Virus record (IMG/VR): IMGVR_UViG_2823949316_000001
Coordinates: 69,531 to 95,542 of that record
Length of the DNA stretch: 26,012 bases
From: a virus
Taxonomy: Duplodnaviria; Heunggongvirae; Uroviricota; Caudoviricetes
Strand: one strand, 5' to 3'
Numbering within the stretch: position 1 is the stretch's first letter; every line of letters begins with the position of its first letter. The position numbers and the translations under genes were made by a program. The notes under the pieces were generated by a model, which saw nothing but the letters and a program-made list of their open reading frames with translations, was not told the DNA's origin and searched no databases. This document shows positions 1,653-24,708 of this stretch, piece after piece.

Positions 1653-1658
1653 AGGCTT

Positions 1659-1674
1659 AGCATGCCGTCACGCC
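1659..1674 (-). promoter_or_regulatory. Late-promoter-like motif, copy 1 (GGCGTGAC-GG-CATGCT; 6 nt later ATG at 1652)
   Basis: Minus strand reads GGCGTGAC GG CATGCT AAGCCT ATG; same geometry as seven other copies. Confidence 0.75.
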
Positions 1675-1676
1675 TC

Positions 1677-1692
1677 GTCGTGACGCCACAAT
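1677..1692 (+). promoter_or_regulatory. Late-promoter-like motif, copy 2 (GTCGTGAC-GC-CACAAT; 6 nt later ATG at 1699)
   Basis: GTCGTGAC GC CACAAT GCCCAC ATG; back-to-back with copy 1. Confidence 0.75.
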
Positions 1693-1698
1693 GCCCAC

Positions 1699-2607
1699 AT
1701 GGCAATTTCAATCGTCCAGCCACTCCCCGCCGGCAACGCTATCCGGCTCTTTATCGCCCCGCCTCCGGGTGCGAGATACTGGCTCGTCCTGCGTTCCGCG
1801 ATGGATGATTTCGACAGTATGCAGCCCCTGGCAGACGCGCAGCGGGTCGACCACGACGGCCTGCCGTATATGGTCTGGGATGACGGCGCCATGGTTCCGA
1901 TCGCCTACGAAGGCGACGAGCGCGTGGTGATCGATGCCAAGCACCTGCAGAACGAGGTCATGGCGTTCTACCGCCCGTACTACCGGATGCCTGACGGCAG
2001 CTGGCAGGCTGCTCAGACCGCCACCGGCACGCCCAAGGCCCTGTTCGAGGAGAGCACGACCGACGTGCAATCCTTCATCCGTGATCGGCTTGAAGCCGGC
2101 CTGAAGGTCGAATGCGAGCGCGAGAACCTGGTGACCGAGCACGGCTACGTGCAGGTCTACACCGCCCCGCCAGCGCTCGAACAGAACCTGCGTTTCCCTC
2201 TGGTGACGATCACCCTGGAGAACGAGTGCCCGGTCGAGCGCGGCATCGGTGAGGACGTGGCCGGCGACGCGTTCGACGCAGTCGGTGACGACTGGTTCGA
2301 CTCCGAGGGCTGGCTGGCGCAGGTGCAGTTATCCCTCGTCGGCTGGTCGCTCAACAGCGACGAGCGCATCGAGCTGCGCAAGGCCATGCGCCGGGTGATC
2401 CTGGCCAATCTGCCGATCTTCGAATCCGTGGGCATGCTCACCCCGCAAGTCAGTTTTCAGGACGTTGACGCCCTCAGCGGCGAGTTCAACGCCAACATGT
2501 ACCAGGTCATGGGCTCCTTCTCGTGCCTGGCCCCAGTCCGCGTCGGTCGCCGTTACGGCGAGGGCGAGGTCGTCAACGATGTCATCACCAGGAGCACCAA
2601 TGGCTAA
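1699..2607 (+). CDS. Putative tail terminator/completion protein (302 aa)
   Basis: Good codon usage and position directly before the sheath region; C-terminal half has the alpha/beta character of tail terminators. No SD before the ATG. Confidence 0.55.
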   Translation: MAISIVQPLPAGNAIRLFIAPPPGARYWLVLRSAMDDFDSMQPLADAQRVDHDGLPYMVWDDGAMVPIAYEGDERVVIDAKHLQNEVMAFYRPYYRMPDGSWQAAQTATGTPKALFEESTTDVQSFIRDRLEAGLKVECERENLVTEHGYVQVYTAPPALEQNLRFPLVTITLENECPVERGIGEDVAGDAFDAVGDDWFDSEGWLAQVQLSLVGWSLNSDERIELRKAMRRVILANLPIFESVGMLTPQVSFQDVDALSGEFNANMYQVMGSFSCLAPVRVGRRYGEGEVVNDVITRSTNG

Positions 2608-2815
2608 ATCTCCCGCCGTTGCGGACAAGCCCGTCGAAAGCGCGGGCAGCGAGCCGCTTACCCTAACCGAGTTCTGCATCCGGCTCTCGAAGCGCGTGAA
2701 GCGCGTCGAGCTGATCGGCGCCTTCGAGTTCGTCGAGAAGGCTGCAGGCCACGTCCGCGATACCGAAGAAGCCTTCCAGGGCCGCTTCGACGCGTTCATC
2801 AAACAGCCTGCATAA
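2600..2815 (+). CDS. Small hypothetical tail-region protein (71 aa)
   Basis: AGGAG 5 nt upstream of ATG 2600, overlapping the previous stop; MAKSPAVADK...FDAFIKQPA; ends just before the sheath SD. ORF-track start 2465 is an upstream extension. Confidence 0.75.
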   Translation: MAKSPAVADKPVESAGSEPLTLTEFCIRLSKRVKRVELIGAFEFVEKAAGHVRDTEEAFQGRFDAFIKQPA

Positions 2816-2824
2816 GGAGGCGAC

Positions 2825-4537
2825 ATGTCCGTTTTCTTCGACGGGAAACTTCTCGTTACCCCGACTACCGCGTCTGTCGTCAATGACGAGGCGATGCGCA
2901 ACCAGAACATCTCGGTCGGCAACGTCGCCGCCCTGGTCGGCCGTTCCACCGGCGGCGAGCCGCACAAGCCGCTGCGCTTCTCCAGCCCGAGCGAGGCCAA
3001 GCGTGTCCTGCGCAGCGGCGAGCTGCTGGAAGCCGTGCTAAAGGCGTTCGATCCGTCCGCCGAGGTCGGCAGTCCTGCCACCGTGGTCGCCGTGCGTGTG
3101 AACCCGGCCATCCAGTCGGCGCTGACCCTCAAGAATGGCGCTGATGCCGACGTCATCAAGCTGACTTCGATCGGCTTTGGCCTGGGCGAAAACCAGATCA
3201 ACGCCAAGATCGAGTCCGGCACCCTGACCGGCAAGCGCATCACCATCCAGCAGGGCAACCGCTTCTACTCGGCCGACAACATTGCTCGCAATACTTTCAG
3301 CGTGCAGTACAGCGGCGGCGAAGCGACCGCAACACTGACCGTGAGCGGCACCCAGGTCGTGCTGTCGGCACCGGCCGGTACCGCTGTCGAGACCATCGCC
3401 CTGGCTGACTTCCCGACTGTCGGCGCGCTGGTCGATCGCATCAACGCCGTGCCTGGCTTCGCCGCCTCGGTAGAAGGCCGCAGCGACTCGCAGCCGACGC
3501 TGACCGCGCTGGACTTCGTGTCTGCTCAGGACGTCCTGACCAAGTACACCGCCACCGCCAACCTGCAGGCCGTCGTCGACTGGTTCAACGGTTCCAACCA
3601 GGATCTGGTGCGCGCCGAGCGCCTGGCGAATGCCGGCACCGTGCCCGCCAACATCGGCTTCACCTACCTGGCTGGCGGCAGCGACGGCACGACCACCGTT
3701 CAGGACTGGGCTGACGCCTATGAGGCCCTGCAGCGCGTCGACGTGCAGTGGGTTACCCCGATCAGCGGCGAGGCTGCCATTCACGCCCTCAACGACACCC
3801 ATTGCGCCTTCTGCTCCGAGCAGCTGCGCAAAGAGCGTCGCAGCATCGTCGGCACCACGGTGAACACCAGCAACGAGGCCGCCCTGACCGCCGCCAAGGC
3901 GCTCAACAGCGACCGCACCTCGCTCGTGCACCTGGGCTACTACGACTACGACCTGAGCGGCAAGCTCGTGCTCATGCCTCCGTACATGACCGCGGCCCTG
4001 CTGGCTGGTGCGTTCTCTGGCGTCAACCCGGGCACCCCGCTGACCAACAAGACCATCAAGGTTCGCGGCCTCGAGCGCGACCTGATCAACCCGACCGAGA
4101 CCGACGAGCTGATCCTGGGTGGCGTGCTGCCTCTGGAAAACACCGAGGCCGGCTACAAGGTGGTCAAGTCGATCAGCACCTGGCGCCAGAACGACAACTA
4201 CAACCGCGTGGAGCAGTCCTGCGGCTTCGCCCTCGACTTCACCGTGCGTACTGTGCGTGAAGCGCTGGACGTGCTGCGCGGCCAGAAGGCCAACCCGCTG
4301 CTGCTGTCGCGCGCGATCAGCATCGCCGACAGCGCCCTGCGCGAGCTGGCCCGCCAGGAGCCTCAAGGCCCCGGCATCCTGGCTGGTGACGCAGAGAGCC
4401 CTGCCTACAAGGGGATCAAGGCCTCGATCGAAGGCGACGTGGTTCGCGTCGAATTCGAATGCTCGCCGGTGATCCCTGCCAACTACATCCTCGTGAGCGT
4501 GTTCGCTGTCCCGTACAGCGGCAGCGCGAGCGCATAA
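2825..4537 (+). CDS. Contractile tail sheath protein (570 aa)
   Basis: Strong SD (TAAGGAGG); sheath-like C-terminus (GFTYLAGGSDG; STWRQNDNYNRVEQS; VRVEFECSPVIPANYI); size; followed by the tube gene. Confidence 0.92.
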   Translation: MSVFFDGKLLVTPTTASVVNDEAMRNQNISVGNVAALVGRSTGGEPHKPLRFSSPSEAKRVLRSGELLEAVLKAFDPSAEVGSPATVVAVRVNPAIQSALTLKNGADADVIKLTSIGFGLGENQINAKIESGTLTGKRITIQQGNRFYSADNIARNTFSVQYSGGEATATLTVSGTQVVLSAPAGTAVETIALADFPTVGALVDRINAVPGFAASVEGRSDSQPTLTALDFVSAQDVLTKYTATANLQAVVDWFNGSNQDLVRAERLANAGTVPANIGFTYLAGGSDGTTTVQDWADAYEALQRVDVQWVTPISGEAAIHALNDTHCAFCSEQLRKERRSIVGTTVNTSNEAALTAAKALNSDRTSLVHLGYYDYDLSGKLVLMPPYMTAALLAGAFSGVNPGTPLTNKTIKVRGLERDLINPTETDELILGGVLPLENTEAGYKVVKSISTWRQNDNYNRVEQSCGFALDFTVRTVREALDVLRGQKANPLLLSRAISIADSALRELARQEPQGPGILAGDAESPAYKGIKASIEGDVVRVEFECSPVIPANYILVSVFAVPYSGSASA

Positions 4538-4549
4538 GGAGCCTGACCC

Positions 4550-4972
4550 ATGAGACAGAACCTCAAAACCCGCTCCGGCAACCGGATCGCCATCGTGCTC
4601 GATGGCAAGCAGATCGGTCTGCTGCAGTCCGTCCGCGCAAACGATGACTACTCGCCCGAGCCGGCGAGTGGCATCGGCGACATTCACGTCGTCGAGCACG
4701 TGCCGACCATGGCCCGTCACTCGCTGAGCGTGAGCGCGATGCTGCTCAACCGCGGCGCCATGCTGGAGGCCGGCGTCGCCACCGAGAATGGCGAGACCGC
4801 GCTGCTCGGCCTGGTCTGCGACATCGAAGTCTACTCCAAGGACGACGGTGCCCTGCTGCGCAAGTACATCGGCTGTACCTACGCATCCGGCGACCTGGAA
4901 GTCAGCAAGCACGCCATCGTCATGCAATCTGGCCAGTTCATGGCCCTGGACGTGACCGGCAGCGCGGCGTGA
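4550..4972 (+). CDS. Tail tube protein (140 aa)
   Basis: SD TAAGGAG; immediately after the sheath; beta-rich, typical tube size (IGLLQSVRANDDYSPEPASGIGDIHVVEHVP). Confidence 0.88.
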   Translation: MRQNLKTRSGNRIAIVLDGKQIGLLQSVRANDDYSPEPASGIGDIHVVEHVPTMARHSLSVSAMLLNRGAMLEAGVATENGETALLGLVCDIEVYSKDDGALLRKYIGCTYASGDLEVSKHAIVMQSGQFMALDVTGSAA

Positions 4973-4981
4973 CGCCACAAT
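4966..4981 (+). promoter_or_regulatory. Late-promoter-like motif, copy 3 (GGCGTGAC-GC-CACAAT), overlapping the tube stop codon
   Basis: GGCGTGAC GC CACAAT AGCTGT A; CGTGACGCCACAAT is identical to copy 2. Confidence 0.7.
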
Positions 4982-4991
4982 AGCTGTAACC

Positions 4992-5025
4992 GCCGCCCAC
5001 CCGACCGGCTGGGCGGCTTTTCTTT
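4992..5025 (+). terminator. Intrinsic terminator-like hairpin
   Basis: GCCGCCCA (4992-4999) / TGGGCGGC (5010-5017) followed by TTTTCTTT. Confidence 0.8.
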
Positions 5026-5040
5026 ATCAGGAGAATGACC

Positions 5041-5406
5041 ATGGCTCGTGAGCCGCAGAAGACAGATTTCCCCGTCGAGGTCGAAGGCCTCGGCACGTTC
5101 ATTTTCGCCCGGCGCACGATGCGCGACGAGATCGTGATCCAGCGGGAGTTCGCCCGGTACATCGACGGCGTGGAGCCAACCGCCTGGCTGGCCCAGATCG
5201 GTGGCTGGCTGTCGGATATGCGCACGCTGATGGTCGAGGCCCCAGAAGGCTGGCTGGCCGATATCGACGGCAACCCGATCAAGGATCTGATGGACGTCGA
5301 CCCGCTCGACGAGGACACCTACTCCAAGCTCGCGAAGGTGCACGAAGCCTTTCGCGACAAGGAGCGGTCTTTTCGACGCAAACCTGCACAAGGCGGCGAA
5401 GCGTAA
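5041..5406 (+). CDS. Tail assembly chaperone (121 aa)
   Basis: SD AGGAG at 5029-5033; lies between tube and tape measure; followed by an overlapping start-less ORF. Confidence 0.8.
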   Translation: MAREPQKTDFPVEVEGLGTFIFARRTMRDEIVIQREFARYIDGVEPTAWLAQIGGWLSDMRTLMVEAPEGWLADIDGNPIKDLMDVDPLDEDTYSKLAKVHEAFRDKERSFRRKPAQGGEA

Positions 5407-5644
5407 CGGCAAGGAGAGGGCCAAGACGATCGAGTTCTGGTTCAGGCGCAAATACAACCTGACCAGCACCGACCCAAGGTTCCTGGAATGCACGCTGGAA
5501 GAAATGACCACCGACTACTGGGCTCACATCTACCACGACGACCCGAAAGCCGGTGACGAGGTGGAAGACGAAGACTTCGACATGGAAGCTGAGCTGGCCA
5601 AGCTGGAAAACGACCCTAACGCCTGGGAAAACCTGAGCAAATGA
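5375..5644 (+). CDS. Tail assembly chaperone C-terminal extension, probably reached by +1 frameshift at TCT TTT CGA
   Basis: The +1 frame is open from 5291 to TGA 5642-5644 (DANLHKAAKRNGKERAKTIEFWFRRKYNLTSTDPRFLECTLEEMTTDYWAH...WENLSK*) with no ATG until 5504. Its stop overlaps the tape measure ATG. Not in the ORF track. Confidence 0.7.
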   Translation, partial: DANLHKAAKRNGKERAKTIEFWFRRKYNLTSTDPRFLECTLEEMTTDYWAHIYHDDPKAGDEVEDEDFDMEAELAKLENDPNAWENLSK

Positions 5645-8529: not shown

Positions 8530-8538
8530 GGGGTCAGA

Positions 8539-10781: not shown

Positions 10782-10783
10782 TC

Positions 10784-11056
10784 ATGCCAGGCATCTCTCG
10801 CGTTGGCGTCGACGCGGCCGGCGGTACCATTATCGGCAACCTGGCGCCCACGGTCTTCATCAATGGGGCGCCATGCGCTGTCCAGGGCGCAGATGTTGCG
10901 CCCCATCCGCCGTTCCCGCCACACTCGGCGGCACCGGTGATGGTCGGGCACAGCTCGACGGTCTTCGCCTGCGGGATACCGGTTTGCCGCGCCGGCGACC
11001 AGGCCAGCTGCGGGCACGCGGCAACCGGGAGCGGCAACGTCTTCGCCGGCGGCTAG
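10784..11056 (+). CDS. PAAR-like spike tip protein (90 aa)
   Basis: TVFINGAPCAVQGADVAPH...SSTVFACGIPVCRAGDQASCGH pattern with His/Cys metal ligands, directly after the spike. Confidence 0.9.
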   Translation: MPGISRVGVDAAGGTIIGNLAPTVFINGAPCAVQGADVAPHPPFPPHSAAPVMVGHSSTVFACGIPVCRAGDQASCGHAATGSGNVFAGG

Positions 11057-11057
11057 C

Positions 11058-11073
11058 GTCGTGACCTCATACT
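11058..11073 (+). promoter_or_regulatory. Late-promoter-like motif, copy 4 (GTCGTGAC-CT-CATACT; 6 nt later ATG at 11080)
   Basis: GTCGTGAC CT CATACT GGTGGC ATG fills the 23-bp intergenic gap. Confidence 0.75.
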
Positions 11074-11079
11074 GGTGGC

Positions 11080-12264
11080 ATGCTACCAACAGCCCCGCCT
11101 ACCGATCAGCGTGCCGGCATCCGCCCGATAGCCTTCGTGCTCAACAACGGCGGAAGCCTCGGCTCGCCCGTATCCCTGAAGATCAGGCCAGAGGATCTGC
11201 AGCGCAATGAGCCGTCCCGGATCGCTGTAACCCAGACGCTTGGCCGCACCACCCAGGGGTGGGCCGATAACTTCGGGGCTGGCCTGCCTTCGTGCACGAT
11301 CAGCGGCCACACCGGGTGGCGGAAGGGCGGCTCGAGCGGTGAGGATGGCGCAGAGCATTTCTTGACCCTGCACGACACGGTCATGCCGGCCTATCACGCA
11401 GCCAAGCAGGCCGCGATCGAGATCGGCACCGATCCGGCCTCCGTCAAGCTCCTGTTCGTCGACATGCTCGATGGGTTCTGCTGGAACGTGGCGCCCATGA
11501 GCTTCACGCTGCGCCGCTCGCGTAACCGGCCGCTCCTCTTCCAGTACAACATCGCCCTGCAGGCCATTTCGACAGACATCGATAACCCTCTGCGCATCCT
11601 GCCGTTCCTGGGGAACATTCCGGCCGGCCTTGATGCCCTCGGCGGCGTGCTCGGCCGGCTCTGGGACTTCGCCCTGAGCGTGCAGGGCTGGGTCAGCTCG
11701 GCGCTCGGCTTCGTCGACAAGGCCTTGGCCCCGATCGCTGCCACGGTGAAGACTTTCGTCGACATCTCGGCTTCCGTGCTTGGAGCAGTCAGCACGGCGG
11801 TCGGGGCCGTCCGCAACGGGGTGAGTGGCGTCGCCAACCGCCTGATCGGCATTGCCGGCGACATGGCCCAGGTCGGGATCAATGTGTTCCGGACGATTTC
11901 GTCCATATCCAATCTGCCGGCCCATCTTCGCGCTGCGATATCCAGGGTCGGTGCCGCCTACAACGAGGCGCTGTGCATCCTGCGCAACTCGCTGCGCCCG
12001 CGCAAGACCTACCAGGAGTACGATGGGCTGTACGGCGCTTCGAACTGTTCCTCGACCACGGGCGGCCGTTCGATGAGCGCTTACACCAACATGAACGCTT
12101 TCGCGCTCATGCAGGAGGAAAAGCTGCCGATCGAACTGAACAGTGCGGCGCTTTCCAGCGTGTCCAGCGTGAATCGTAGTGACCCCGTTCTGGCGCCTAT
12201 CCCACTGGCAGAGATCGGTCGGCACCTCGACAACATCAACGCCGGCACCGTGGTGAACCAATGA
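11080..12264 (+). CDS. Putative tail tube initiator / baseplate protein (394 aa)
   Basis: N-terminal tube-like fold (LKIRPEDLQRNEPSRIAVTQTLG...DNFGAGLPSCTISGHTG) then a helical region; position after the spike. Confidence 0.6.
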   Translation: MLPTAPPTDQRAGIRPIAFVLNNGGSLGSPVSLKIRPEDLQRNEPSRIAVTQTLGRTTQGWADNFGAGLPSCTISGHTGWRKGGSSGEDGAEHFLTLHDTVMPAYHAAKQAAIEIGTDPASVKLLFVDMLDGFCWNVAPMSFTLRRSRNRPLLFQYNIALQAISTDIDNPLRILPFLGNIPAGLDALGGVLGRLWDFALSVQGWVSSALGFVDKALAPIAATVKTFVDISASVLGAVSTAVGAVRNGVSGVANRLIGIAGDMAQVGINVFRTISSISNLPAHLRAAISRVGAAYNEALCILRNSLRPRKTYQEYDGLYGASNCSSTTGGRSMSAYTNMNAFALMQEEKLPIELNSAALSSVSSVNRSDPVLAPIPLAEIGRHLDNINAGTVVNQ

Positions 12265-15040: not shown

Positions 15041-15044
15041 AGAT

Positions 15045-15080: not shown

Positions 15081-15089
15081 GACGTTTGA

Positions 15090-15105
15090 GTCGTGACCCC
15101 ATACT
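15090..15105 (+). promoter_or_regulatory. Late-promoter-like motif, copy 5 (GTCGTGAC-CC-CATACT)
   Basis: GTCGTGAC CC CATACT GCCCGC A, upstream of the baseplate J gene. Confidence 0.75.
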
Positions 15106-15134
15106 GCCCGCATCACTAGATGCGGGCATTTTAC

Positions 15135-16232
15135 GTGGCTTTCCAGATCAAGGACTTCGCGTCCATCACCGCCGCCATCATCAACCACATGCGTGGCGTT
15201 ACCTCGAAGGTGACCGACTACCAGCCAGGCTCGGTGGCCCGCACCATCGTGGAAGGCCCTGCGGTCGAGATGGAAGAGCTGTACCTGCAGATGTTCCTTG
15301 GTCTGCGCGAGGCGATCCCGGTGGCGACATTCCAGTCGTTCGGGTTTGACACTCTGCCAGCAGCCTACGCACACGGCTTTGTCAGCGTATCGGCTGCGAC
15401 TCCACCGGCGGCAGATATCGTCGTGCCAGTCGGAACCAGCTTCACATCTACGGACGGGCGCGAATACCTGAGCTCCGTCGCCGTGACCTGGGCGGCAGGC
15501 CAGTCCATGGTGATCGTCCCTGTCATCGCTGCTGCGGCCGGCCTGGCCTACAATATCGCAGCTGGCCTGATCACCAGCTCCGCCTTCTTTGGTGCCGGCT
15601 ACACCATCAGCAATCAGGCCATCACCAATGGCACCGACGCAGAGACCGATGATGAGCGGTCGGCCCGCTTCGCCGAATTCGTCGCATCGCTCAGCCGCGG
15701 CACCGTCCTGTCCTGCCTCTACGCTGCAAAACAGGCCGCCGCGCGTGACGAGACTGGCAACATCTATGAGTACGTCACCAGATCCGGTATTCGGGAAACC
15801 GCAGGTTACGTCCGTATCTACCTTTACTCCTCGGTCGGTGTCCCGTCCGAAGGCCTGCTGGCCGATGGGCAGCGCCTGATCGATGGGCAGGCAGACCCGG
15901 AAACCGGCACCCCGCTGGTGGCGGGATTTCGTGCTGGCGGGATCCGCGTCGACGTCCTCCCTATGGTTGAGAGATCGATCCCCATGGGCATTGGGGTACG
16001 CATGCGGTCTGGGTATGCCCTGACGGCTGCGGTGCAGCAGACGATCTCTGACTCCTACGCCAACGCCATCCGCAACGTGCAGCCTGGTGACACGCTGCTG
16101 ATCGACAACCTGCGAGCGATCTTGATCGGGACGCCAAACGTGGCGGAGCTGGCATTATCGGCGACCTCGAACATCACCTGCGAGCAGAATGAGGCGTTGG
16201 TGCCAGGCGCGCTGACGATCTACGCCATATGA
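15135..16232 (+). CDS. Baseplate J-like wedge protein (about 365 aa; GTG 15135 preferred, ATG 15120 possible)
   Basis: KDFASITAAII...TDYQPGSVARTIVE; NGTDAETDDERSARF motifs typical of the baseplate J family. Confidence 0.9.
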   Translation: MAFQIKDFASITAAIINHMRGVTSKVTDYQPGSVARTIVEGPAVEMEELYLQMFLGLREAIPVATFQSFGFDTLPAAYAHGFVSVSAATPPAADIVVPVGTSFTSTDGREYLSSVAVTWAAGQSMVIVPVIAAAAGLAYNIAAGLITSSAFFGAGYTISNQAITNGTDAETDDERSARFAEFVASLSRGTVLSCLYAAKQAAARDETGNIYEYVTRSGIRETAGYVRIYLYSSVGVPSEGLLADGQRLIDGQADPETGTPLVAGFRAGGIRVDVLPMVERSIPMGIGVRMRSGYALTAAVQQTISDSYANAIRNVQPGDTLLIDNLRAILIGTPNVAELALSATSNITCEQNEALVPGALTIYAI

Positions 16233-17434: not shown

Positions 17435-17438
17435 TCCC

Positions 17439-17454
17439 GTCGTGACGCGACAAT
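17439..17454 (+). promoter_or_regulatory. Late-promoter-like motif, copy 6 (GTCGTGAC-GC-GACAAT)
   Basis: GTCGTGAC GC GACAAT GGTGGC A, 4 bp after the upstream stop. Confidence 0.75.
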
Positions 17455-17482
17455 GGTGGCAACACGAATTTACGAGGGTTCA

Positions 17483-17968
17483 ATGGTGGCAATTCTCACC
17501 GAACAGGGTCGCGTCGCTGTCGCCGCCTACATGTCAGAACAGCCGCTGCATATGGCCTGGGGCAATGGCAGTGTTGCATGGGATACGACCCCTGTGCAGG
17601 CTGGCCCGAACGAAACCAGCCTCGTTGCCGAGGTCGGTCGCCTGAAGGCAACTGCCATCCAGTACGCGGTGCCCAACGCAAGCGGCACCATCGACCTCCC
17701 CGAAGGTCGTTTCAACGTCAGTGCGACGCCGACCAAATACCTGCTGCTGACCTTCGAGTTCGCCTACAACCACGCAATCGGCGAGGATATCCGCGAGCTG
17801 GGTGTGTTCATCGGCACGACCCTCGCCACTGGCGTGCCTGCTGGCACCATCTACCTGACCCCTGATCAGATCGACAACCCTGGTCGCCTTGTGGTCGTTG
17901 AGCGCGTGGCTCGGTTCACTCGTCAGTCGAACACCAAGCAGAAATTCACCTACGTGATCGAGTTCTGA
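17483..17968 (+). CDS. Baseplate/fibre-attachment protein (161 aa)
   Basis: SD GAGGG at 17474-17478 before ATG 17483. LHMAWGNG...NETSLVAEVG...IRELGVF pattern recalled from the small gene preceding DUF4815-type genes in large myoviruses. Confidence 0.65.
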   Translation: MVAILTEQGRVAVAAYMSEQPLHMAWGNGSVAWDTTPVQAGPNETSLVAEVGRLKATAIQYAVPNASGTIDLPEGRFNVSATPTKYLLLTFEFAYNHAIGEDIRELGVFIGTTLATGVPAGTIYLTPDQIDNPGRLVVVERVARFTRQSNTKQKFTYVIEF

Positions 17969-17972
17969 TTCC

Positions 17973-19937
17973 ATGGCTGATATCGAGCTGGACAACTATT
18001 ACAACCGCTACAACCCGGCCAAACAGTACGAAGAGCACCTGTTTCGTGCGGGCAACGTGCTGCAGTCGGCTGAGCTGAACGAGATTCAGGCCTGCTCGGC
18101 GCAGCGCCACCGGATGATGGGCGACGCGCTCTTCAAGGACGGCGACATCGTGCGCGATGCTCGCGTGATCGTGGACAGCGTCACCGGTGCTGTGATCGCC
18201 GAGTCTGGAGCCATCTACCTGGATGGCCAGGTGCGCGGTGTGCCGCCGGCAAACTTTACGATCCCGCTGACGGGAACTGTGGTCATCGGTATCTATCTGC
18301 TTGAGTCGATCGTCACCGAACAGGAAGACCCTGAGCTCGCCGAGCCAGCCACGGACGTCCGCGCCTATGGAGAGCCGGGCGCAGCCCGCCTCAAGGTCGT
18401 GCCGATCTGGGGCATCCAGGGAGAGCGCGATGACGCAGAGTTCTACCCGATCTACTACGTCGACGATGGCCAGCTCCGCGCCAAGGAGGCGCCGCCTGTT
18501 CTGGATGCCGTGAGCCAGGCAATCGCCCGCTACGACATCGACAGCTCTGGCTCGAACTACGTGGTCGAGGGCATGCTGGTGCGACGCCTGTCCGATGAAG
18601 GCACGAACCAGGTGTACACCGTGGATGACGGCCGGGCGCGCGTGAACGGCTTCGGCGTCAACCTGACCAACTCGCGGCGCCTGGTGTATCAGACCGAACC
18701 AGTCATCAAATTGATCGACAGCGAGCCGACCACGTCCACGTCTGCAACGCTGCAGCACGTAACCTTTGCCCGCCCGCCGGCGCGCGATGTCGTTCAGGTG
18801 CGCATCACCGAGCAGTCGTCCGCTACGATGACGCACGCCAGCTTCTCTGGCGGTGCCGACCCGCTGCCTGACACGTCTGTCGTGCAGATCATGAGTGTCA
18901 CCCAGGGCGGCACCACCTTTGTGGAGGGCGCCGACTATGTGCTGACCGGGCAGACCGTAGACTGGTCGCCGGCTGGCAATGAGCCCGCCCCGGGCTCGAC
19001 CTACCAGGTCGTATACCGACACATTTCGACTGCCCAGCCGCAGAATCTGACCGCCAAAGGCTTTGACGTGGCCGGCGCCGTGGTCGGCAGCCTGATCCTG
19101 ACCACATACAACTGCATGCTGCCCCGGATCGATCGCCTGTGCATCGATGACAGCGGCCAGTTCGTGTGGGTGCAGGGCGTGTCGACCGACTACAACCCGG
19201 TGCGGCCGTCCGTCCCGTCCACGATGATCGCCCTGGCCCAGGTTCAGCAGAACTGGGACGATACCACCGTCGTCAACAATGATGGTGTGCGCACGGTCTC
19301 CATGCGCGAGATCGAAACCATGTTCACCCGCATGGATCAACTGACGGATCTCGTGGCGCAGCAGCTGCTGATCTCGGATGTGTCTACCCGCGAGGCGGCG
19401 GCCAAGAAGGGGATCTTCTCCGACCCATTCCTGAACGATAACCACCGTGACATCGGTGTCGCGCAGACCGCCGCGATCAGCAGCGGCGTACTCACCCTGC
19501 CGATTATCCCTGCCGTTCGCTCTGTCGGCAGCGACATCGAGACGCCGCAGAAGTGCGCCTTCGAGATCGAGGTGGTCATCGACCAGGCTGAGCGCACCGG
19601 TACCATGAAGGTCAACCCCTACATGGCGTTCGACGTGCCTGCAGCGCCAGTTACGCTGAATCCTTCCGTGGATCGGTGGACTGAGACCAGCACGCAGTGG
19701 CTCAGCGACGTCACGCAGAAGTTCATTGCCTACGACCCGGGCTATCACTACGCCCAGGGGAGCGGCCGAGGCCCGACCTATGTGGTGACCAGCCAGAACA
19801 CCAATTTGGTCTCGAGCAAATCGACGGCGATCGCTTACCTGCGACAGATCCCGATCAACTTCACTATCACCGGCTTTGGCCCGGGCGAAACGCTCACCAG
19901 CGTCACGTTCGATGGCATCCCTGTGACTCCGGTTTAA
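17973..19937 (+). CDS. DUF4815-like tail/baseplate adsorption protein, N-terminal part (654 aa)
   Basis: YYNRYNPAKQYEEHLFRAGNVLQSAELNEIQ start and GIFSDPFLND motif resemble the DUF4815 family (recalled, not searched). Confidence 0.72.
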   Translation: MADIELDNYYNRYNPAKQYEEHLFRAGNVLQSAELNEIQACSAQRHRMMGDALFKDGDIVRDARVIVDSVTGAVIAESGAIYLDGQVRGVPPANFTIPLTGTVVIGIYLLESIVTEQEDPELAEPATDVRAYGEPGAARLKVVPIWGIQGERDDAEFYPIYYVDDGQLRAKEAPPVLDAVSQAIARYDIDSSGSNYVVEGMLVRRLSDEGTNQVYTVDDGRARVNGFGVNLTNSRRLVYQTEPVIKLIDSEPTTSTSATLQHVTFARPPARDVVQVRITEQSSATMTHASFSGGADPLPDTSVVQIMSVTQGGTTFVEGADYVLTGQTVDWSPAGNEPAPGSTYQVVYRHISTAQPQNLTAKGFDVAGAVVGSLILTTYNCMLPRIDRLCIDDSGQFVWVQGVSTDYNPVRPSVPSTMIALAQVQQNWDDTTVVNNDGVRTVSMREIETMFTRMDQLTDLVAQQLLISDVSTREAAAKKGIFSDPFLNDNHRDIGVAQTAAISSGVLTLPIIPAVRSVGSDIETPQKCAFEIEVVIDQAERTGTMKVNPYMAFDVPAAPVTLNPSVDRWTETSTQWLSDVTQKFIAYDPGYHYAQGSGRGPTYVVTSQNTNLVSSKSTAIAYLRQIPINFTITGFGPGETLTSVTFDGIPVTPV

Positions 19938-19946
19938 GGAACCTTC

Positions 19947-21155
19947 ATGGCTCTCACTGCAAATCCACAAGGTGTAGTCACCGGGCAATTCACTATCCCG
20001 GCCAACGTATCTGCTGGCTCGAAGCGGGTTGAATTCAAGGGCTCCGGCGGCAGCCACGCCAGTGCCTCGTTCTTCGGTCAGGGCACTTTCGTTGAGAACG
20101 TGATGCAGAAGGTGGTCAACTCGACCACCCGCTATTACGACCCGCTCGCCCAAACCTTCTATCTCGACAGCCTGCGCCAGGTCGCCGGGCTCGACCTCTA
20201 CGTCGAAGCGAAGGGTACGACGCCGATCGTCGTGCATATCCGCGAGACCTCGAACGGCTATCCGGCCCAGACCATCTTGGCAGAGGCCAGTCTTCATCCC
20301 TCCGGCATCACCGCCGGTGCGTGGAACCGCTGGCTGTTCCAGACCCCGGTAACCCTGCTGCCGAATGTCGAATACTGCATCGTCGTCATGTGTGATGACG
20401 CAGTGTCCTCGATTGGGATCGCCGAGCTTGGCAAATGGTCGCTTTCGAGTCAGCGCTGGGTCACCAGCCAGGCGTCCAACGTTGGTGTGCTCTTCTCCTC
20501 GTCGAACAACTCGACATGGACGGCGCACCAAGACCGTGACATGACCTTCCGTTTGCTGGCGGCCAAGTACACCCAGGCCCAGCGTGTCGTTGATCTTGGT
20601 ACCGTAGCTGCCAGCGGGCATACCGACGCACTCGTGCTGTCCGCGCCTGACACCCCGACCAGCGAGACCACCTTCAGTATCGACCTGGAGCTGCCTGACG
20701 GCACCGTGATCACCACGGGTGACAGCCAGAAGGTGACGTTCATTCCCGCCGTGACCGGCAATATTGGCGTGAAAGCCCGGCTGTCCGCGAGCGAGCATGT
20801 GTCGACTACGGTATTCCCGGGCACGGTGCTCGCGCTGGGCACCGTCCAAACCACGGCTGACTATGTGTCGAGGGCGTTCCCAGCTGGCGCGCCTGATAGC
20901 GATGTCATGGTGATCTTCGACGCCTACCTGCCTTCTGGCTCGACCGTTGCGGTTTCTTTGTCCGGCACCGGGGCTGGCGACACATGGGAGACGATCCCCC
21001 AGGACGGCGTTGCGCTTCCCATTGGCGACGGGCTGTATGAGTATCGATTCAAGAAGGTCGACTTCAACAAGGCCAACTGCAAGATCAAGCTGGTTCTCAA
21101 TGGCACCAACGCCGCCCGGCCGATCGTCCGTAACCTGCGTGCGAGTGTGACCTGA
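19947..21155 (+). CDS. DUF4815-like protein, C-terminal part (402 aa)
   Basis: Same frame as the preceding ORF; DPLAQTF...GLDLYV and HQDRDMTFRL motifs; SD TAAGGA. Confidence 0.7.
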   Translation: MALTANPQGVVTGQFTIPANVSAGSKRVEFKGSGGSHASASFFGQGTFVENVMQKVVNSTTRYYDPLAQTFYLDSLRQVAGLDLYVEAKGTTPIVVHIRETSNGYPAQTILAEASLHPSGITAGAWNRWLFQTPVTLLPNVEYCIVVMCDDAVSSIGIAELGKWSLSSQRWVTSQASNVGVLFSSSNNSTWTAHQDRDMTFRLLAAKYTQAQRVVDLGTVAASGHTDALVLSAPDTPTSETTFSIDLELPDGTVITTGDSQKVTFIPAVTGNIGVKARLSASEHVSTTVFPGTVLALGTVQTTADYVSRAFPAGAPDSDVMVIFDAYLPSGSTVAVSLSGTGAGDTWETIPQDGVALPIGDGLYEYRFKKVDFNKANCKIKLVLNGTNAARPIVRNLRASVT

Positions 21156-21571
21156 TGATCGACGATCGCACTCCTGCGCTACAGCTTCCGCTGCCGCACG
21201 CCGACAACTACCTGGACGACGACGTCGCCAGGTTGCGGGAGGCCTTCACCTCGCTGGACGAGTTGCTGGCGTCCGACGACCCGGCCCTGTCGAGCATTCA
21301 GGAGCTGGTCGATGCGATCAAGGAAAATGCATCGAACATCATGACCCTGCGGGAGGATGCTGAGGAGGTGCAGACGCTGGCCGCTGACCAGACCGTGGTC
21401 AACCTCAATAGTCTGACCGATACGACTGGCTGTACCGTCTTCATTGAAGGCGTTCGCCTGAACAAGAACCAGTGGACGCGGGATCCTGCAGTAATGACCC
21501 GCTTCACTCTCACCCAGAGTTATTCGGCGCCAATGGTCATTACCATCGTGCGTCGTCAGGGAGGCGTGTGA
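21155..21571 (+). CDS. Tail fibre anchor/adaptor-like protein (138 aa)
   Basis: TGATG coupling; N-terminal MIDDRTPALQLPLPHADNYLDDDVARLREAF resembles fibre N-terminal anchors; coiled-coil middle. Confidence 0.55.
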   Translation: MIDDRTPALQLPLPHADNYLDDDVARLREAFTSLDELLASDDPALSSIQELVDAIKENASNIMTLREDAEEVQTLAADQTVVNLNSLTDTTGCTVFIEGVRLNKNQWTRDPAVMTRFTLTQSYSAPMVITIVRRQGGV

Positions 21572-22260
21572 GCAAACTACTCGACTTTTGGGGCGACATG
21601 ACTGGTGTCGTCCTCGACTATGCCCTTCCAACGCCGCCGAGTTCGGCCTGGGCTATGTGTTACGGGCAGGCACTGGTAGCGGGCGTACCTGAGACCGCGG
21701 CCCTTCGGAAAAAGCTCATCGACGCCGGCTTCCCGCACGGTAAGAATGGCAACAACGACCCGCTCGTGCCCGATGGCCGTGGCCGTGTGTTCGCTGGCTG
21801 GGACAGCATGGGCGGCACAGCTGCTGGGCGCTTAACGACAGCCGGCGGCGGGGTTAATGGGGCTGCCCTGGGGGCCGTTGGTGGCGCGCAAGCGCACACA
21901 CTGACAGCTGCGCAAATGCCGCAGCACAACCATGCCGTCACTGATCCTGGGCACAGTCATAGCGTCTATGACCCAACCCACACGCACAGCGTATATGACC
22001 CTGGGCACACCCACTCGATCACAACTACCGACACGGCTGATACGACGACCGGGTCACCAGGTAACGCGCAGGGCACAGCGAACCGAATTTTCAACGCCAA
22101 CGTCACTGCAAGCGCTACCGGCGTAAGCATCTACGGCGCCGCCACCGGCGTCAGTATCTATGCGTCCGGCACCGGGATCAGCACGCAAAACAACGGCTCC
22201 GGCGCCGCTCATCCGATCACCCAGCCGACCGGCGTGATGAACAAGATCATCAAACTCTGA
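21568..22260 (+). CDS. Tail fibre with tail-collar domain and His-x-His needle tip (230 aa)
   Basis: GTGA overlap with SD GGAGG; collar motifs (WAMCYGQ; VPDGRGRVFAGWD; GGAQAHTLTAAQMPQHNH; QPTGVMNKIIK). Confidence 0.85.
   Translation: MSKLLDFWGDMTGVVLDYALPTPPSSAWAMCYGQALVAGVPETAALRKKLIDAGFPHGKNGNNDPLVPDGRGRVFAGWDSMGGTAAGRLTTAGGGVNGAALGAVGGAQAHTLTAAQMPQHNHAVTDPGHSHSVYDPTHTHSVYDPGHTHSITTTDTADTTTGSPGNAQGTANRIFNANVTASATGVSIYGAATGVSIYASGTGISTQNNGSGAAHPITQPTGVMNKIIKL
21925..22191 (+). repeat. 27-bp period repeats: DPxHxHSVY x3 outbound and xATGVSIYx x3 inbound
   Basis: 21943-22023 and 22111-22191, separated by a non-repetitive loop. Confidence 0.85.
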
Positions 22261-22268
22261 CCGCCTGT

Positions 22269-22284
22269 GTCGTGACAGCAAACT
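22269..22284 (+). promoter_or_regulatory. Late-promoter-like motif, copy 7 (GTCGTGAC-AG-CAAACT), upstream of the lysis cassette
   Basis: GTCGTGAC AG CAAACT ACCCCA A. Confidence 0.72.
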
Positions 22285-22313
22285 ACCCCAAGACGCAAAT
22301 CTTGGGGTTTTTT
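22285..22313 (+). terminator. Terminator-like hairpin that also pairs the holin SD
   Basis: Perfect 9-bp stem ACCCCAAGA / TCTTGGGGT, loop CGCAAA, T-run to 22313, ATG at 22314. Confidence 0.75.
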
Positions 22314-22526
22314 ATGCAATTTATCGACGACTGGAAACGCCAGTTTCCGCGCCTCTGGAGCGTAAGGCTTTCGCTCTTGGCTGCGCTCGTGTCCAGCGTC
22401 GAGGCTGGGTTCACTTACTGGGCAACGGGCAAGGCTCCTGTCCTTGTTGTGGCGGCCGCCGTTATCTCGCTCGGCGCATCCGTGGCCCGCATCGTCGCTC
22501 AGGTAAAGGTGAGCGACAATGGCTAA
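22314..22526 (+). CDS. Holin-like membrane protein (70 aa)
   Basis: MQFIDDWKRQFPRLWSVRL start, two hydrophobic segments, directly upstream of and overlapping the endolysin. Confidence 0.75.
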   Translation: MQFIDDWKRQFPRLWSVRLSLLAALVSSVEAGFTYWATGKAPVLVVAAAVISLGASVARIVAQVKVSDNG

Positions 22527-23016
22527 AGTCGGTTCCCGCACCCTGCAAGGCACTGTCGGCGCCGGCGCCGCTGCTCTCCTCCTCGCCTACGTGCCGATGT
22601 TCGAAGGCACTATCCTGCGGGGTCACCTCGATCCGATCGGCATCGTCACGGCCTGCACGGGTCACACCAAGACCGCCGTGCTGGGCCGGCCGTACAGTGC
22701 TGAGCAGTGCAAGGCGCTGCTGGATCAGGATCTGGTCGAGCACGCCCAGGGCGTCCTGCGCTGCACGCCTTCACTGGAAGGCAAGACCTACCAGCTGGCC
22801 GCCGCCAGCAGCTTCGCCTTCAACGTTGGCGTCGGCGCTTACTGCAAGAGCTCGATCGCCCGTGCGTTCAACGCTGGCGACGCGATCACGGCCTGCAAGC
22901 GATTCAACGAGAATGCCGCCGGGCGCCCGCAGTGGGTGTCGGCCGGCGGCAAGGTTCTCCCCGGACTCGTCAAACGCCGCGCTATCGAGCGGCAAATGTG
23001 CGAGGGCAAGCTGTGA
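22519..23016 (+). CDS. SAR endolysin, GH24 phage lysozyme (165 aa)
   Basis: Weakly hydrophobic Ala/Gly-rich N-terminus; catalytic triad E-x8-D-x5-T (FEGTILRGHLDPIGIVT); FAFNVG and GLVKRRAIER motifs. Confidence 0.92.
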   Translation: MAKVGSRTLQGTVGAGAAALLLAYVPMFEGTILRGHLDPIGIVTACTGHTKTAVLGRPYSAEQCKALLDQDLVEHAQGVLRCTPSLEGKTYQLAAASSFAFNVGVGAYCKSSIARAFNAGDAITACKRFNENAAGRPQWVSAGGKVLPGLVKRRAIERQMCEGKL

Positions 23017-23053
23017 TGCCCATGCACCCACCAATCAACCGAGACCAGTAGTA

Positions 23054-23257
23054 ATGGCATCCGATGAGAAAGAGTTTCGGGAGATGGGTACCCAGATCGT
23101 CCGCCTTCAGGGGCAGGTCGAGCACATCCAGGAGCGGATGAAGAGTTTTGTCACGCAGGCCGAGTTCATCCCGGTGCGGATCATTGCATACGGACTGACT
23201 GGCATGACGCTGACCTCTGTCTTCGCCGCTCTGCTAGCGAAGGTCATCATCAAATGA
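23054..23257 (+). CDS. Small membrane protein, coiled coil plus C-terminal TM (67 aa)
   Basis: MASDEKEFREMGTQIVRLQGQVEHIQERMK...IIAYGLTGMTLTSVFAALLAKVIIK; ATGA overlap with the next gene. Confidence 0.7.
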   Translation: MASDEKEFREMGTQIVRLQGQVEHIQERMKSFVTQAEFIPVRIIAYGLTGMTLTSVFAALLAKVIIK

Positions 23258-23703
23258 GACGACAAATCCCCGCCAACATCGCTATCCCACTCATGGTGCT
23301 GTTCGCACTCTTCATCATGGTCAGCACCTGGTGGTGGGTCGTTCTCTCCGGCAGCAATCCCTACACCGTGACCAACGTCGGCGTGGTCAATGTCCGCGGC
23401 GAAGCGCAGGAGCAGTTCCGTCCGGGCGAGGTGGTCGGCATCATCCGCAATATCTGCACGAGCGAGAGCATCGGCACATCGTTCAATCCCGGACTGCGCA
23501 ATGACATCGGCCTGTTATTCCCCCTGCCAGGCGGCGTCATCCATAGCGAGGCCGGGTGCCGCCAGGGCAAGTACGGCTTCATCATGCCGAACCTGCCGCC
23601 CGGCACCTACACCTACGTCAATACAGTCCTGTACCAGAGCAACCTGGTAGGCCGTGACGAGCACGCGATCTTCCCGCCGCTAACCCTTGAGGTTCTGCCA
23701 TGA
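23254..23703 (+). CDS. Membrane-anchored protein with predicted periplasmic beta domain and two Cys (149 aa)
   Basis: N-terminal TM (IAIPLMVLFALFIMVSTWWWVVL) then a soluble beta-rich domain; ATGA-coupled on both sides. Confidence 0.75.
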   Translation: MRRQIPANIAIPLMVLFALFIMVSTWWWVVLSGSNPYTVTNVGVVNVRGEAQEQFRPGEVVGIIRNICTSESIGTSFNPGLRNDIGLLFPLPGGVIHSEAGCRQGKYGFIMPNLPPGTYTYVNTVLYQSNLVGRDEHAIFPPLTLEVLP

Positions 23704-24077
23704 TCTCCCTGCGAACCGCCAGCCTGGCGGTTTTAGCTGCCCTCCTGCTCGCCGGCGCTGCCGGTGGTGGTGCCGTCGTTGCTACGTGGAAGGCCAATGC
23801 CGGCCACGGCCAGGCGCTGCAGGACAAAGACGCTACCATCCTGCGCCTGGAGGGCCAGGTGTCCGAGCTCAAGCTGGCGATCGCCGAGCAGAACAAGGGC
23901 GTGGCGGTGGCCGAGGCCCAGGCCAAGGCAATCGACGACATGCAGGCCCAGGCCCAGCGGCACCTGACCGAGATGGCGACCTTCAGCCAGGGCCGCATGG
24001 ACAAGCTGGCCAAACTGGCTGAGCAGTCGACGAGCTGCGGTGAGGTGCTGCGCGGTAACTGGGAGATGCGGCGATGA
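23700..24077 (+). CDS. i-spanin (Rz-like, 125 aa)
   Basis: N-terminal TM followed by a long coiled coil and one C-terminal Cys, in the lysis cassette. Confidence 0.8.
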   Translation: MISLRTASLAVLAALLLAGAAGGGAVVATWKANAGHGQALQDKDATILRLEGQVSELKLAIAEQNKGVAVAEAQAKAIDDMQAQAQRHLTEMATFSQGRMDKLAKLAEQSTSCGEVLRGNWEMRR

Positions 24078-24412
24078 GCGAGCTGAAGAAATTACTGGCC
24101 CAGTGCGCGATCGCCGTGGCGGCCTGCCTGGGCACCCTGGTGATTGCCGGGTGCGCGGCTCCCGTGCAGGCGCCTGCGCCAGAAGTGGTGGTGGTCGAGA
24201 AGAAGGTGAAGGATCCCTGCATCAGCGAGGCGCCGGCCAGGCCGGCGTATGCAACCGGGAAGGGCGACTATCCGGTCGACGCAAAGGGGCAGCCGGATGA
24301 TGCCAAGGCGGCGGCCATCCTGGGCCAGGACTTCGAGCTCGCCGATCAGTACGGCAAGCGGTGGGAGGCGGCTGCCGCCGGCTGCGTGAAGGTGCCGGCG
24401 GCGAACCTCTAA
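24074..24412 (+). CDS. o-spanin (Rz1-like lipoprotein, 112 aa), separated architecture
   Basis: Lipobox LVIAGC; Pro-rich linker; additional Cys residues; follows the i-spanin with an ATGA overlap. Confidence 0.8.
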   Translation: MSELKKLLAQCAIAVAACLGTLVIAGCAAPVQAPAPEVVVVEKKVKDPCISEAPARPAYATGKGDYPVDAKGQPDDAKAAAILGQDFELADQYGKRWEAAAAGCVKVPAANL

Positions 24413-24636
24413 CGGGCGTAGCGCTTGCCGACCAGCTCGGCTTCCGTCTTGCAGGCGACGCACACGTCGAACCCATGCCCGCGGCGCGCTGCGGGCATTT
24501 CCGCATCGCAGTTCACGCACTCGGCCGGGCCGTAGCCGGCGTCGCCGGGCTGGTACTTCACCGGCGCCGGCCGGCTCTTGTTATTGCGTTCCCACTCCTG
24601 CAGCTCAATCTCCTGAGCGCGGTCTTCAGCTGACAT
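24409..24636 (-). CDS. TraR/DksA-family C4 zinc-finger protein (75 aa)
   Basis: CVNC-x16-CVAC; N-terminal EDRAQE helix; SD GGGGAG. Confidence 0.88.
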   Translation of the reverse strand: MSAEDRAQEIELQEWERNNKSRPAPVKYQPGDAGYGPAECVNCDAEMPAARRGHGFDVCVACKTEAELVGKRYAR

Positions 24637-24656
24637 CTTGATCTCCCCAAGGGCAT

Positions 24657-24684
24657 AAAAATGGCGCCGGTGATGTCCGGCGCC
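24657..24684 (-). terminator. Intrinsic terminator-like hairpin between integrase and TraR-like gene
   Basis: Minus strand GGCGCCGG ACATCA CCGGCGCC ATTTTT (perfect 8-bp stem). Confidence 0.75.
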
Positions 24685-24692
24685 TTATGGTT

Positions 24693-24708
24693 ATTGTGGC
24701 ATCACGCC
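24693..24708 (-). promoter_or_regulatory. Late-promoter-like motif, copy 8 (GGCGTGAT-GC-CACAAT), overlapping the integrase stop codon
   Basis: Minus strand GGCGTGAT GC CACAAT AACCAT A; 16/17 identical to copy 3. Confidence 0.68.

Follow-up and report, generated by a model that had tools for sequence, protein, structure and literature searches.

A shared octamer-hexamer element without a -35 box marks predicted late promoters, many of them apparently leaderless, in a lineage of ~90-kb temperate myoviruses

Results

Organization of the locus

We analyzed a 26,012-nucleotide stretch of virus record IMGVR_UViG_2823949316_000001 (the window, by which we mean the whole stretch) for a repeated promoter-like element, an octamer and a hexamer at fixed spacing, that an earlier note made from the sequence alone had read at eight gene boundaries and had attributed to a phage late-transcription regulon. 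The window corresponds to C1:748749-774760 of a 4.95-Mb assembly and contains the tail, baseplate, and lysis modules of a myovirus, with genes for the sheath, the tube, a tape-measure-like lytic protein, PAAR, baseplate J/W-like proteins, and a holin. A TraR/DksA-like gene and an integrase gene lie at its end. Based on BLAST comparison with Pseudomonas phage Jeremy, the window is part of a temperate myovirus prophage of ~94 kb (C1:~680600-775100). Its relatives, with genomes of ~86-96 kb, are Pseudomonas phages Jeremy, Dolphis, and Touem01, Bordetella phage PHB04, Escherichia phage ECML-606-1, Enterobacter phage phiT5282EW, Yersinia phage fHe-Yen8-01, Aeromonas phage ST4, and Morganella phage Mecenats66.

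All eight sites were found again in the window with the coordinates, strands, and sequences that had been reported, and each is directed into the adjacent gene, including the two on the minus strand (Table 1). The 16-base pattern GKCGTGAY-N2-SANRMT matched the window eight times, compared to a mean of 0.02 and a maximum of 1 in 100 dinucleotide-preserving shuffles. The octamer by itself was only weakly enriched (11 matches versus 5.9), indicating that the signal is the octamer plus the hexamer at a fixed spacing. The three additional octamers (7933, 12640(-), and 22231) have no hexamer and are within genes. The GGCGTGAY variants at 4966 and 24708(-), with G at the second octamer position, may have arisen because the octamer there holds the TGA stop codon of the upstream gene. 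The octamer had also been described as pseudo-palindromic. It is an imperfect palindrome at most, and since the conserved core, TCGTGAY, is asymmetric, that remark carries little weight.

The element is confined to the prophage and conserved in its relatives

The strict pattern had seven matches in the entire 4.95-Mb assembly, and all seven were within the prophage. With a relaxed pattern, 15 of the 16 matches genome-wide fell inside a 65-kb region of the prophage (C1:708372-773456), and the seven strict matches are in this region too. A matrix made from 15 sites scored the prophage sites at 20.7 bits or more and the best match elsewhere at 18.4 bits, a circular comparison in that the matrix was made from the same sites. 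For an independent test, a second matrix was derived solely from the eight sites in the window and used with a threshold of at least 14 bits. This matrix found 10 more matches in the remaining 68 kb of the prophage (0.66 expected), and 14 in Jeremy (0.9 expected), 13 in PHB04 (1.4 expected), and 12 in ECML-606-1 (1.2 expected). In the host genome outside the prophage there were 0.78 matches per 100 kb, which is the level expected by chance. Mecenats66 had one match versus 0.8 expected. Matches to a looser core, TCGTGAY-N3-A-N3-T, numbered 10 in ST4, 8 in fHe-Yen8-01, and 15 in Touem01, compared to 0 for the reversed control, and the motif is kept at orthologous operon starts in distant relatives.

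The sites in the prophage are placed and oriented as would be expected for promoters. Fourteen of the 16 are intergenic or touch only the last codons of the upstream gene, and all 16 are co-oriented with the next gene on their own strand. The earlier note had expected a genome-wide scan to find the motif solely in front of head, tail, lysis, and packaging genes. Confinement to the prophage held, and virion and lysis genes are indeed included, but the predicted regulon is wider; it also covers a methylase operon, a 1295-amino-acid (aa) gene, a metallophosphoesterase gene, and the TraR/DksA-like gene.

Two of these additional genes have features of their own. The 1295-aa gene (C1:723034-726921), which is predicted to be leaderless behind its copy of the motif, has no Pfam match; its relatives, 1213-2253 aa in length, carry the annotation ADP-ribosyltransferase or N6 methylase. 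In size and placement the gene is reminiscent of the packaged anti-restriction proteins of the P1 DarB type, a tentative likeness. The TraR/DksA-like gene (24409-24636(-)) is behind both a copy of the motif and a complete terminator hairpin, straight after the integrase stop codon. This layout is kept in Jeremy, and the gene is present in PHB04 and was not found in ECML-606-1.

The element has a -10-like hexamer, no -35 element, and the geometry of a leaderless start

We determined the information content at each position around 59 sites from four phages. It was ~0 from -57 to -23, high at each position from -22 to -15 (G, T/g, C, G, T, G, A, C/t), low from -14 to -12, and high again at -11 (A), -9 and -8 (A, A/C), and -7 (T), with enrichment of C at -1 and A at +1. 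The resulting consensus is G-T-C-G-T-G-A-Y from -22 to -15, two free bases, C-A-n-A-M-T from -12 to -7, and, after a further five or six bases, C-A at -1/+1. Within the hexamer, the A at -11 and the T at -7 are invariant, and the base at -12 is C (35 of 59) or G, with T in only 8 of 59. Because there is no conservation between -57 and -23, we conclude that there is no -35 element; nor was a TTGACA-like sequence found 16-18 bp from the -10, and a promoter scanner reported none at the sites. There is also no extended -10 TG at -15/-14: the base at -15 is C or T and that at -14 is variable. These properties agree with what had been read from the eight window sites. Canonical sigma-70 promoters are no more frequent in the window than expected (3 matches in 20 kb versus 3.5), with none at a gene boundary and none in the last 6 kb.

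The distance from the element to the downstream start codon is often exact. Among 57 matrix matches in four phages, an ATG begins precisely 22 nt after the start of the octamer in 19 and 23 nt after it in 2. The open reading frames that begin at these ATGs are mostly long (251-1295 aa at the +22 sites and 74-2257 aa elsewhere) and include the terminase, portal, and prohead protease genes, the 1295-aa gene, the divergent pair at 1652/1699, and the baseplate gene at 11080. Gene 1699-2607 is the first of an operon that continues into the tail sheath and tube genes. In the prophage, 7 of the 16 sites would have a leader of zero length. Genes at the +22 sites have no purine-rich ribosome binding site, whereas genes with a leader do (AGGAG before 5035 and GAGGG before 17483). 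In these arrangements the hexamer ends 6-7 nt before the A of the ATG, which is the standard distance from a -10 element to +1. This geometry fits transcription beginning 7 nt past the hexamer and leaderless mRNAs, and the exact spacing to the ATGs agrees with the +1 positions that had been predicted. We regard it as established that the motif exists, has this geometry, is confined to the prophage, and is conserved.

The spacing can also be used to examine annotated start codons. The baseplate gene of Jeremy is annotated from 25667. An ATG is present at the +22 position of the motif (about 25607-25608), and the orthologue in the prophage starts there. Judged by this alignment, the annotated start probably lies about 60 nt too far 3'.

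Two other arrangements were seen at the sites in the window. The octamers of sites 1 and 2 are separated by 2 bp, giving GTCACGCC-TC-GTCGTGAC between two divergent genes that are predicted to be leaderless (1652-1699). The predicted starts are 47 bp apart, and simultaneous binding by two RNA polymerases is therefore hardly possible. Jeremy, PHB04, and ECML-606-1 have retained the divergent pair, and in Jeremy and PHB04 its two copies are spaced more widely. At site 6, the 11-bp sequence CAATGGTGGCA is directly repeated, in frame and at a distance of 30 bp (17449-17493). The first copy covers the -10 hexamer and spacer, and the second contains the likely start codon at 17483. GGTGGCA is also found 3' of the hexamer at site 4 (11074-11080). 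The repeat may be the trace of a duplicated leaderless start.

Terminator-like hairpins overlap or follow some of the predicted starts

Four of the window sites are followed within 40 nt by a GC-rich hairpin and a run of Ts, the features of an intrinsic terminator. All four sequences fold (z-scores of -2.7 to -5.2), and a terminator scanner picked 15105-15128, 22285-22308, and 24684-24663(-) as putative terminators. At the sites at 15090 and 22269, the spacer between the hexamer and +1 is taken up by the left hairpin arm. The hairpin of site 5 forms in RNA that reads through from upstream (-20.1 kcal/mol) and not in RNA that begins at +1 (-0.7 kcal/mol), and the same is true of site 7 (-14.7 versus -1.8 kcal/mol). 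A hairpin over the start is also present at the corresponding sites in Jeremy (30000), PHB04 (90389-), and ECML-606-1 (7558-). We read this overlap as a likely means of operon insulation, in which incoming transcripts would stop and the promoter would restart transcription inside the hairpin.

The hairpin layout appears to be more persistent than the octamer. Upstream of the terminase, neck, and tail genes of Mecenats66, a TGnTAnAAT-like -10 takes the place of the octamer and is followed by a hairpin, a run of Ts, and the ATG. Mecenats66 keeps this layout with almost no octamers, indicating that the hairpin-over-start arrangement outlives the octamer.

Table 1. Sites, hairpins, and an associated gene in the window. 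Positions are window positions; +1 and leaders are predicted from the geometry of the element.
Feature	Position	Strand	Description
Site 1	1652-1674	-	GGCGTGAC-GG-CATGCT-N6-A; +1 (1652) falls on the first base of the ATG that opens gene 822-1652(-), predicted leaderless; back to back with site 2
Site 2	1677-1699	+	GTCGTGAC-GC-CACAAT-N6-A; +1 (1699) falls on the first base of the ATG that opens gene 1699-2607, predicted leaderless
Site 3	4966-4988	+	GGCGTGAC-GC-CACAAT; TGA stop of the tube gene (4550-4972) within the octamer; 47-nt leader to gene 5035-5406
Site 4	11058-11080	+	GTCGTGAC-CT-CATACT; +1 is the ATG of baseplate-module gene 11080-12264, predicted leaderless
Site 5	15090-15112	+	GTCGTGAC-CC-CATACT; 8-nt leader to baseplate gene 15120-16232
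Site 6	17439-17461	+	GTCGTGAC-GC-GACAAT; 22-nt leader with GAGGG ribosome binding site, then ATG at 17483
Site 7	22269-22291	+	GTCGTGAC-AG-CAAACT; precedes holin and lysis genes
Site 8	24686-24708	-	GGCGTGAT-GC-CACAAT; TGA stop of the integrase gene within the octamer; 50-nt leader to the TraR/DksA-like gene
Hairpin and T-run	4992-5025	+	Lies entirely past the start predicted for site 3; -20.6 kcal/mol, z -4.6
Terminator-like hairpin and T-run	15105-15134	+	Left arm 5' of the predicted +1 of site 5
Terminator-like hairpin and T-run	22285-22314	+	Overlaps the predicted +1 of site 7
Hairpin and T-run	24655-24684	-	Lies entirely past the start predicted for site 8; -18.7 kcal/mol, z -5.2
TraR/DksA-like zinc-finger gene, 75 aa	24409-24636	-	phrog_54, E 2.5e-11; member of the predicted regulon

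Candidates for the protein that reads the element

The same box is found in phages and prophages of alpha-, beta-, and gamma-proteobacteria, indicating that whatever reads it is most likely encoded by the phage. We searched for known types of factor. A six-frame search of the whole genome with Sigma70_r2 (PF04542) at E ≤ 1 gave 17 matches, none of them in C1:680600-775100, a result that leaves room for a very divergent sigma factor. A homologue of P1 Lpa was sought in the prophage proteins and DNA (phmmer --max and tblastn), with nothing below E 2.6. Among about 45 early and middle prophage proteins compared with Pfam and PHROGs, there was no RNA polymerase or sigma factor; the families found were helicases, a primase, an exonuclease, an HU-like protein, small helix-turn-helix proteins, an AraC-type regulator, an acyl carrier protein, and phosphatases.

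Only a few proteins outside replication both lack a motif upstream of their own gene and occur throughout Jeremy, PHB04, ECML-606-1, and Mecenats66: the cysteine-rich proteins of 174 aa and 128 aa (here ZnF-174 and ZnF-128) and a DUF7696 protein. The AraC-like regulator, the TraR-like protein, and a NinI-like phosphatase were rejected as the required factor: all three are missing from ECML-606-1, which retains the motif, and the AraC-like and TraR-like genes are themselves downstream of motif sites. DUF7696 and ZnF-128 were judged less likely since they are absent near many loci that carry the motif.

The genes for ZnF-174 (C1:702569-703093) and ZnF-128 are the first two after an AT-rich control region, with overlapping stop and start codons, and there are sigma-70-like promoter candidates upstream of the ZnF-174 gene. 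In ECML-606-1, the homologues of ZnF-174 and ZnF-128 are encoded by CDS 79153-79698 and 78812-79153, respectively. Just 5' of this gene, C1:702000-702500 is extremely AT-rich, is flanked by many short GCGACCG-like repeats, and contains the sigma-70-like promoter candidates of the early rightward operon. The same operon encodes the acyl carrier protein (PP-binding, E 7.6e-14; C1:706815-707057).

The occurrence of ZnF-174 is correlated with that of the element within one phage supergroup. The protein is encoded in all ten of the related phage records and nowhere else among 50,697 phage records. In metagenomes it has 230 relatives, many of them on ~90-kb contigs. Around homologues of ZnF-174 at 48 bacterial loci, the core motif was found 54 times, compared to once for the reversed control. 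A search of IMG/VR with the motif alone gave 18 contigs, and all five of those that are at least 90% complete encode ZnF-174. Its invariant residues are two sets of Cys pairs (C18, C30, C49, and C52; C75, C78, C91, and C94) plus Arg and Asn residues.

The structural models did not point to a known family. The AlphaFold model of ZnF-174 (predicted local distance difference test score, pLDDT, of 87.5) is a mixed alpha/beta zinc fold for which no fold match was found: the best Foldseek match in the PDB had an E of 1.5, the best match in a wide VIA-align search had a Z of 2.8, and BFVD returned just a fragment of a relative. Among AFDB clusters, the search gave homologues alone, one of which carries the automatic name 'ArsR family transcriptional regulator' (domain 97-270), a name that could not be verified. 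The longer homologues that were retrieved have no informative Pfam domain. The model of ZnF-128 (pLDDT of 79) only weakly resembles the zinc ribbons of Elf1, TFIIS, and Rpb9 (Z ≤ 4.8, E ≥ 0.3), which is not evidence of function. On the genomic distribution just described, ZnF-174, possibly together with its 128-aa zinc-ribbon neighbor, is the best candidate for the factor, although we consider the assignment tentative and would not yet call it probable.

Discussion

We believe that the sites are quite probably late promoters specific to this phage lineage, used in the ~94-kb prophage by host RNA polymerase together with a phage-encoded factor. With no -35 element and with C or G in place of T at -12, host RNA polymerase would presumably be unable to use the sites by itself. 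A factor made from the early rightward operon, either an activator or a very divergent sigma-like subunit, would read the asymmetric TCGTGAY box beside the -10 and thereby stand in for recognition of a -35. Transcription would begin 7 nt past the hexamer, and in about 40% of the sites that base would be the A of the ATG, giving leaderless mRNAs for genes that are first in their operons: those for the terminase, the portal, the protease, the giant 1295-aa protein, and the tail and baseplate modules. Operons would be insulated where an upstream operon's terminator hairpin covers the start region of the promoter, such that incoming transcripts stop and new ones begin inside the hairpin. The proposal of the earlier note, a phage-specific late regulon without a -35 that depends on a factor encoded outside the window, is supported by the confinement of the motif to the prophage, the co-orientation of the sites with genes, the conservation in relatives, the exact spacing to the ATGs, the absence of canonical sigma-70 promoters at gene boundaries, and the lack of a sigma, RNA polymerase, or Lpa match in the searches of the prophage described above.

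Several points weigh against this interpretation or against ZnF-174 as the factor. We infer that the sites act as promoters, that they act late, and that they depend on a phage factor. At 4966 and 24708(-), a complete hairpin lies 4-30 nt past the predicted start, and a simple promoter model does not explain it; these downstream hairpins could be for attenuation or could hint at a termination-resistant polymerase. ZnF-174 has no similarity to any known transcription factor that was detectable with Pfam, PHROGs, or the fold searches. The link between ZnF-174 and the motif is confounded because all of the carriers belong to one phage supergroup. Mecenats66 retains the ZnF genes and yet has almost no octamers. 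Lastly, in a distant clade (two loci, L065 and L066) the ZnF gene is itself leaderless behind the motif, and from this layout ZnF-174 could be a target of the regulon instead of its reader.

Other explanations for the element account for some of its features. A rigid 16-bp element with a fixed 2-bp spacing, no -35, and a non-canonical -12 resembles minimal phage sigma promoters, and several of the conserved early proteins are without a known family. Both observations would suit a highly divergent phage sigma-like subunit (compare T4 gp55 and SPO1 gp28/gp34) that reads octamer and hexamer, with no activator of sigma-70 involved. We think this unlikely, given that the six-frame search found no Sigma70_r2 match in the prophage at E ≤ 1, that Pfam and PHROGs found no sigma family among the early proteins, and that the mixed alpha/beta zinc fold predicted for ZnF-174 is not a helical sigma-2; furthermore, A-11 and T-7 are what region 2 of host sigma-70 is known to read. 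The hairpins near half of the window sites, which at 4966 and 24708(-) are entirely within the predicted transcript, raise the question of whether the box is the loading site of a Q-like antiterminator that lets RNA polymerase read through them, and the candidate proteins here are zinc proteins, as is lambda Q. The details do not agree with such a role: the sites lack a -35, the first 18 transcribed bases hold no conserved -10-like element that would induce a pause, a genome has 15-16 sites and not a single one, seven sites would start directly at an ATG, RNA from +1 cannot form the hairpin at 15090 and 22269, and at the tube-gene site of PHB04 the run of Ts is upstream of the box. An antiterminator loading site is, in our view, very improbable.

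We give marginally less credence to a motif that is not transcriptional at all, such as the site of a packaging, replication, or recombination protein or an RNA signal for processing or translation of the downstream gene. Strict orientation and placement at gene boundaries would suit an RNA processing or translation signal as well as a promoter. But the fixed gap of 6-7 nt between hexamer and ATG equals the distance from -10 to +1 of a promoter, C/A is found at -1/+1, a ribosome binding site is absent exactly at the +22 sites, the divergent back-to-back pair is kept in four phages, and the element itself has no RNA structure. It is most improbable of all that the unaided host sigma-70 holoenzyme uses the sites, with the octamer as an unusual upstream extension of the -10. 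The invariant A-11 and T-7 are the key bases of a -10, but there is no TG at -15/-14, no -35, and C or G at -12; the host chromosome outside the prophage has the motif at the level of chance; the box is identical over hosts of three proteobacterial classes; and we infer that constitutive production of the holin and endolysin of a prophage would kill the cell.

Returning to late promoters that depend on a phage factor, the specific proposal that ZnF-174 reads the asymmetric TCGTGAY (-21 to -15), replaces recognition of a -35, and drives a partly leaderless late program would make it an RNA-polymerase-redirecting factor of a new kind. This proposal is more doubtful than the choice of ZnF-174 as the leading candidate, and on present evidence we lean against it. 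If it were true, the widespread and unstudied temperate myoviruses of ~90 kb in alpha-, beta-, and gamma-proteobacteria would share the factor, which in some lineages would switch on the gene that encodes it.

We found no paper on the promoters of PHB04, Dolphis, or fHe-Yen8-01 and none on the sequence of the box; the predicted late-promoter class spans the lineage and is undescribed. The switches that turn on late genes are known in detail for only a few model phages, including lambda, T4, P1, P2/P4, and Mu. The element defines a putative promoter class that can be computed for an entire uncharacterized phage lineage, some members of which can be grown on E. coli, P. putida, Bordetella, Yersinia, and Aeromonas. 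The class permits operon maps and corrections of start codons, such as that of the Jeremy gene, and would provide synthetic biology with an orthogonal promoter that is probably factor-dependent. The lineage is predicted to be a natural system in proteobacteria in which structural operons are translated from leaderless mRNAs. Two or three of its small conserved proteins are candidates for a new transcription factor, and the overlap of terminator and promoter start would be a compact design to insulate operons.

Comparison with known systems

Of the known late systems, that of P1 is the most similar. P1 late promoters (LP) have a -22 box and a -10 and are activated by Lpa with host SspA. The six that are annotated in AF234172 read AAGTGACTT-N4-TAnAAT. 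P1, like the prophage analyzed here, is a myovirus of ~94 kb with more than 10 late promoters that have a -10 hexamer, no -35, and a short box just upstream, and the P1 box AAGTGACTT and the prophage octamer GTCGTGAC have the pentamer GTGAC in common. The earlier note had stated that the element matches neither the P1 element nor that of Q. For P1, the register and the box do differ, but the shared GTGAC core was overlooked. The gap between box and -10 is 2 bp in the prophage and 4 bp after the 9-mer in P1, placing the GTGAC of the prophage 4 bp closer; the base at -12 is C or G in the prophage and T in P1; and P1 Lpa has no cysteines, in contrast to the candidate zinc proteins of the prophage. 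No nucleotide similarity between P1 and the prophage was detected, and P1 late genes are not known to be leaderless. Based on the 4-bp shift in register, the different base at -12, and the lack of an Lpa homologue, we conclude that the prophage element is not a member of the Lpa system, though it appears to be similar in how it works.

The T4 and lambda systems fit less well than that of P1. T4 late promoters have TATAAATA at -10 and depend on gp55 and gp33; like the prophage element, they are an extended element in the -10 region with no -35, and they are read by a phage specificity subunit. However, the sequence is different, the prophage element is longer (16 bp), no sigma-like gene was detected in the prophage, and there is no evidence there for coupling to a sliding clamp as in T4. 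Lambda Q, which contains zinc, binds DNA between the -35 and -10 of PR', a single late promoter that also has a sigma-dependent pause element early in the transcribed region. The two systems are alike in having a factor site close upstream of the -10 and terminators soon after some of the sites. They differ in that the prophage has 15-16 sites and not one, no -35, no conservation from +4 to +18, and many starts that are predicted to be leaderless.

Leaderless mRNAs are also made from promoters that have only a -10, for example in Deinococcus-Thermus, and lambda cI is expressed as a leaderless mRNA from PRM. As in these promoters, the hexamer of the prophage element is 6-7 nt before an ATG that would be +1, with no ribosome binding site. 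What sets the prophage apart is that the -10 is coupled to a phage-specific octamer, in front of what are predicted to be the late structural operons of proteobacterial phages.

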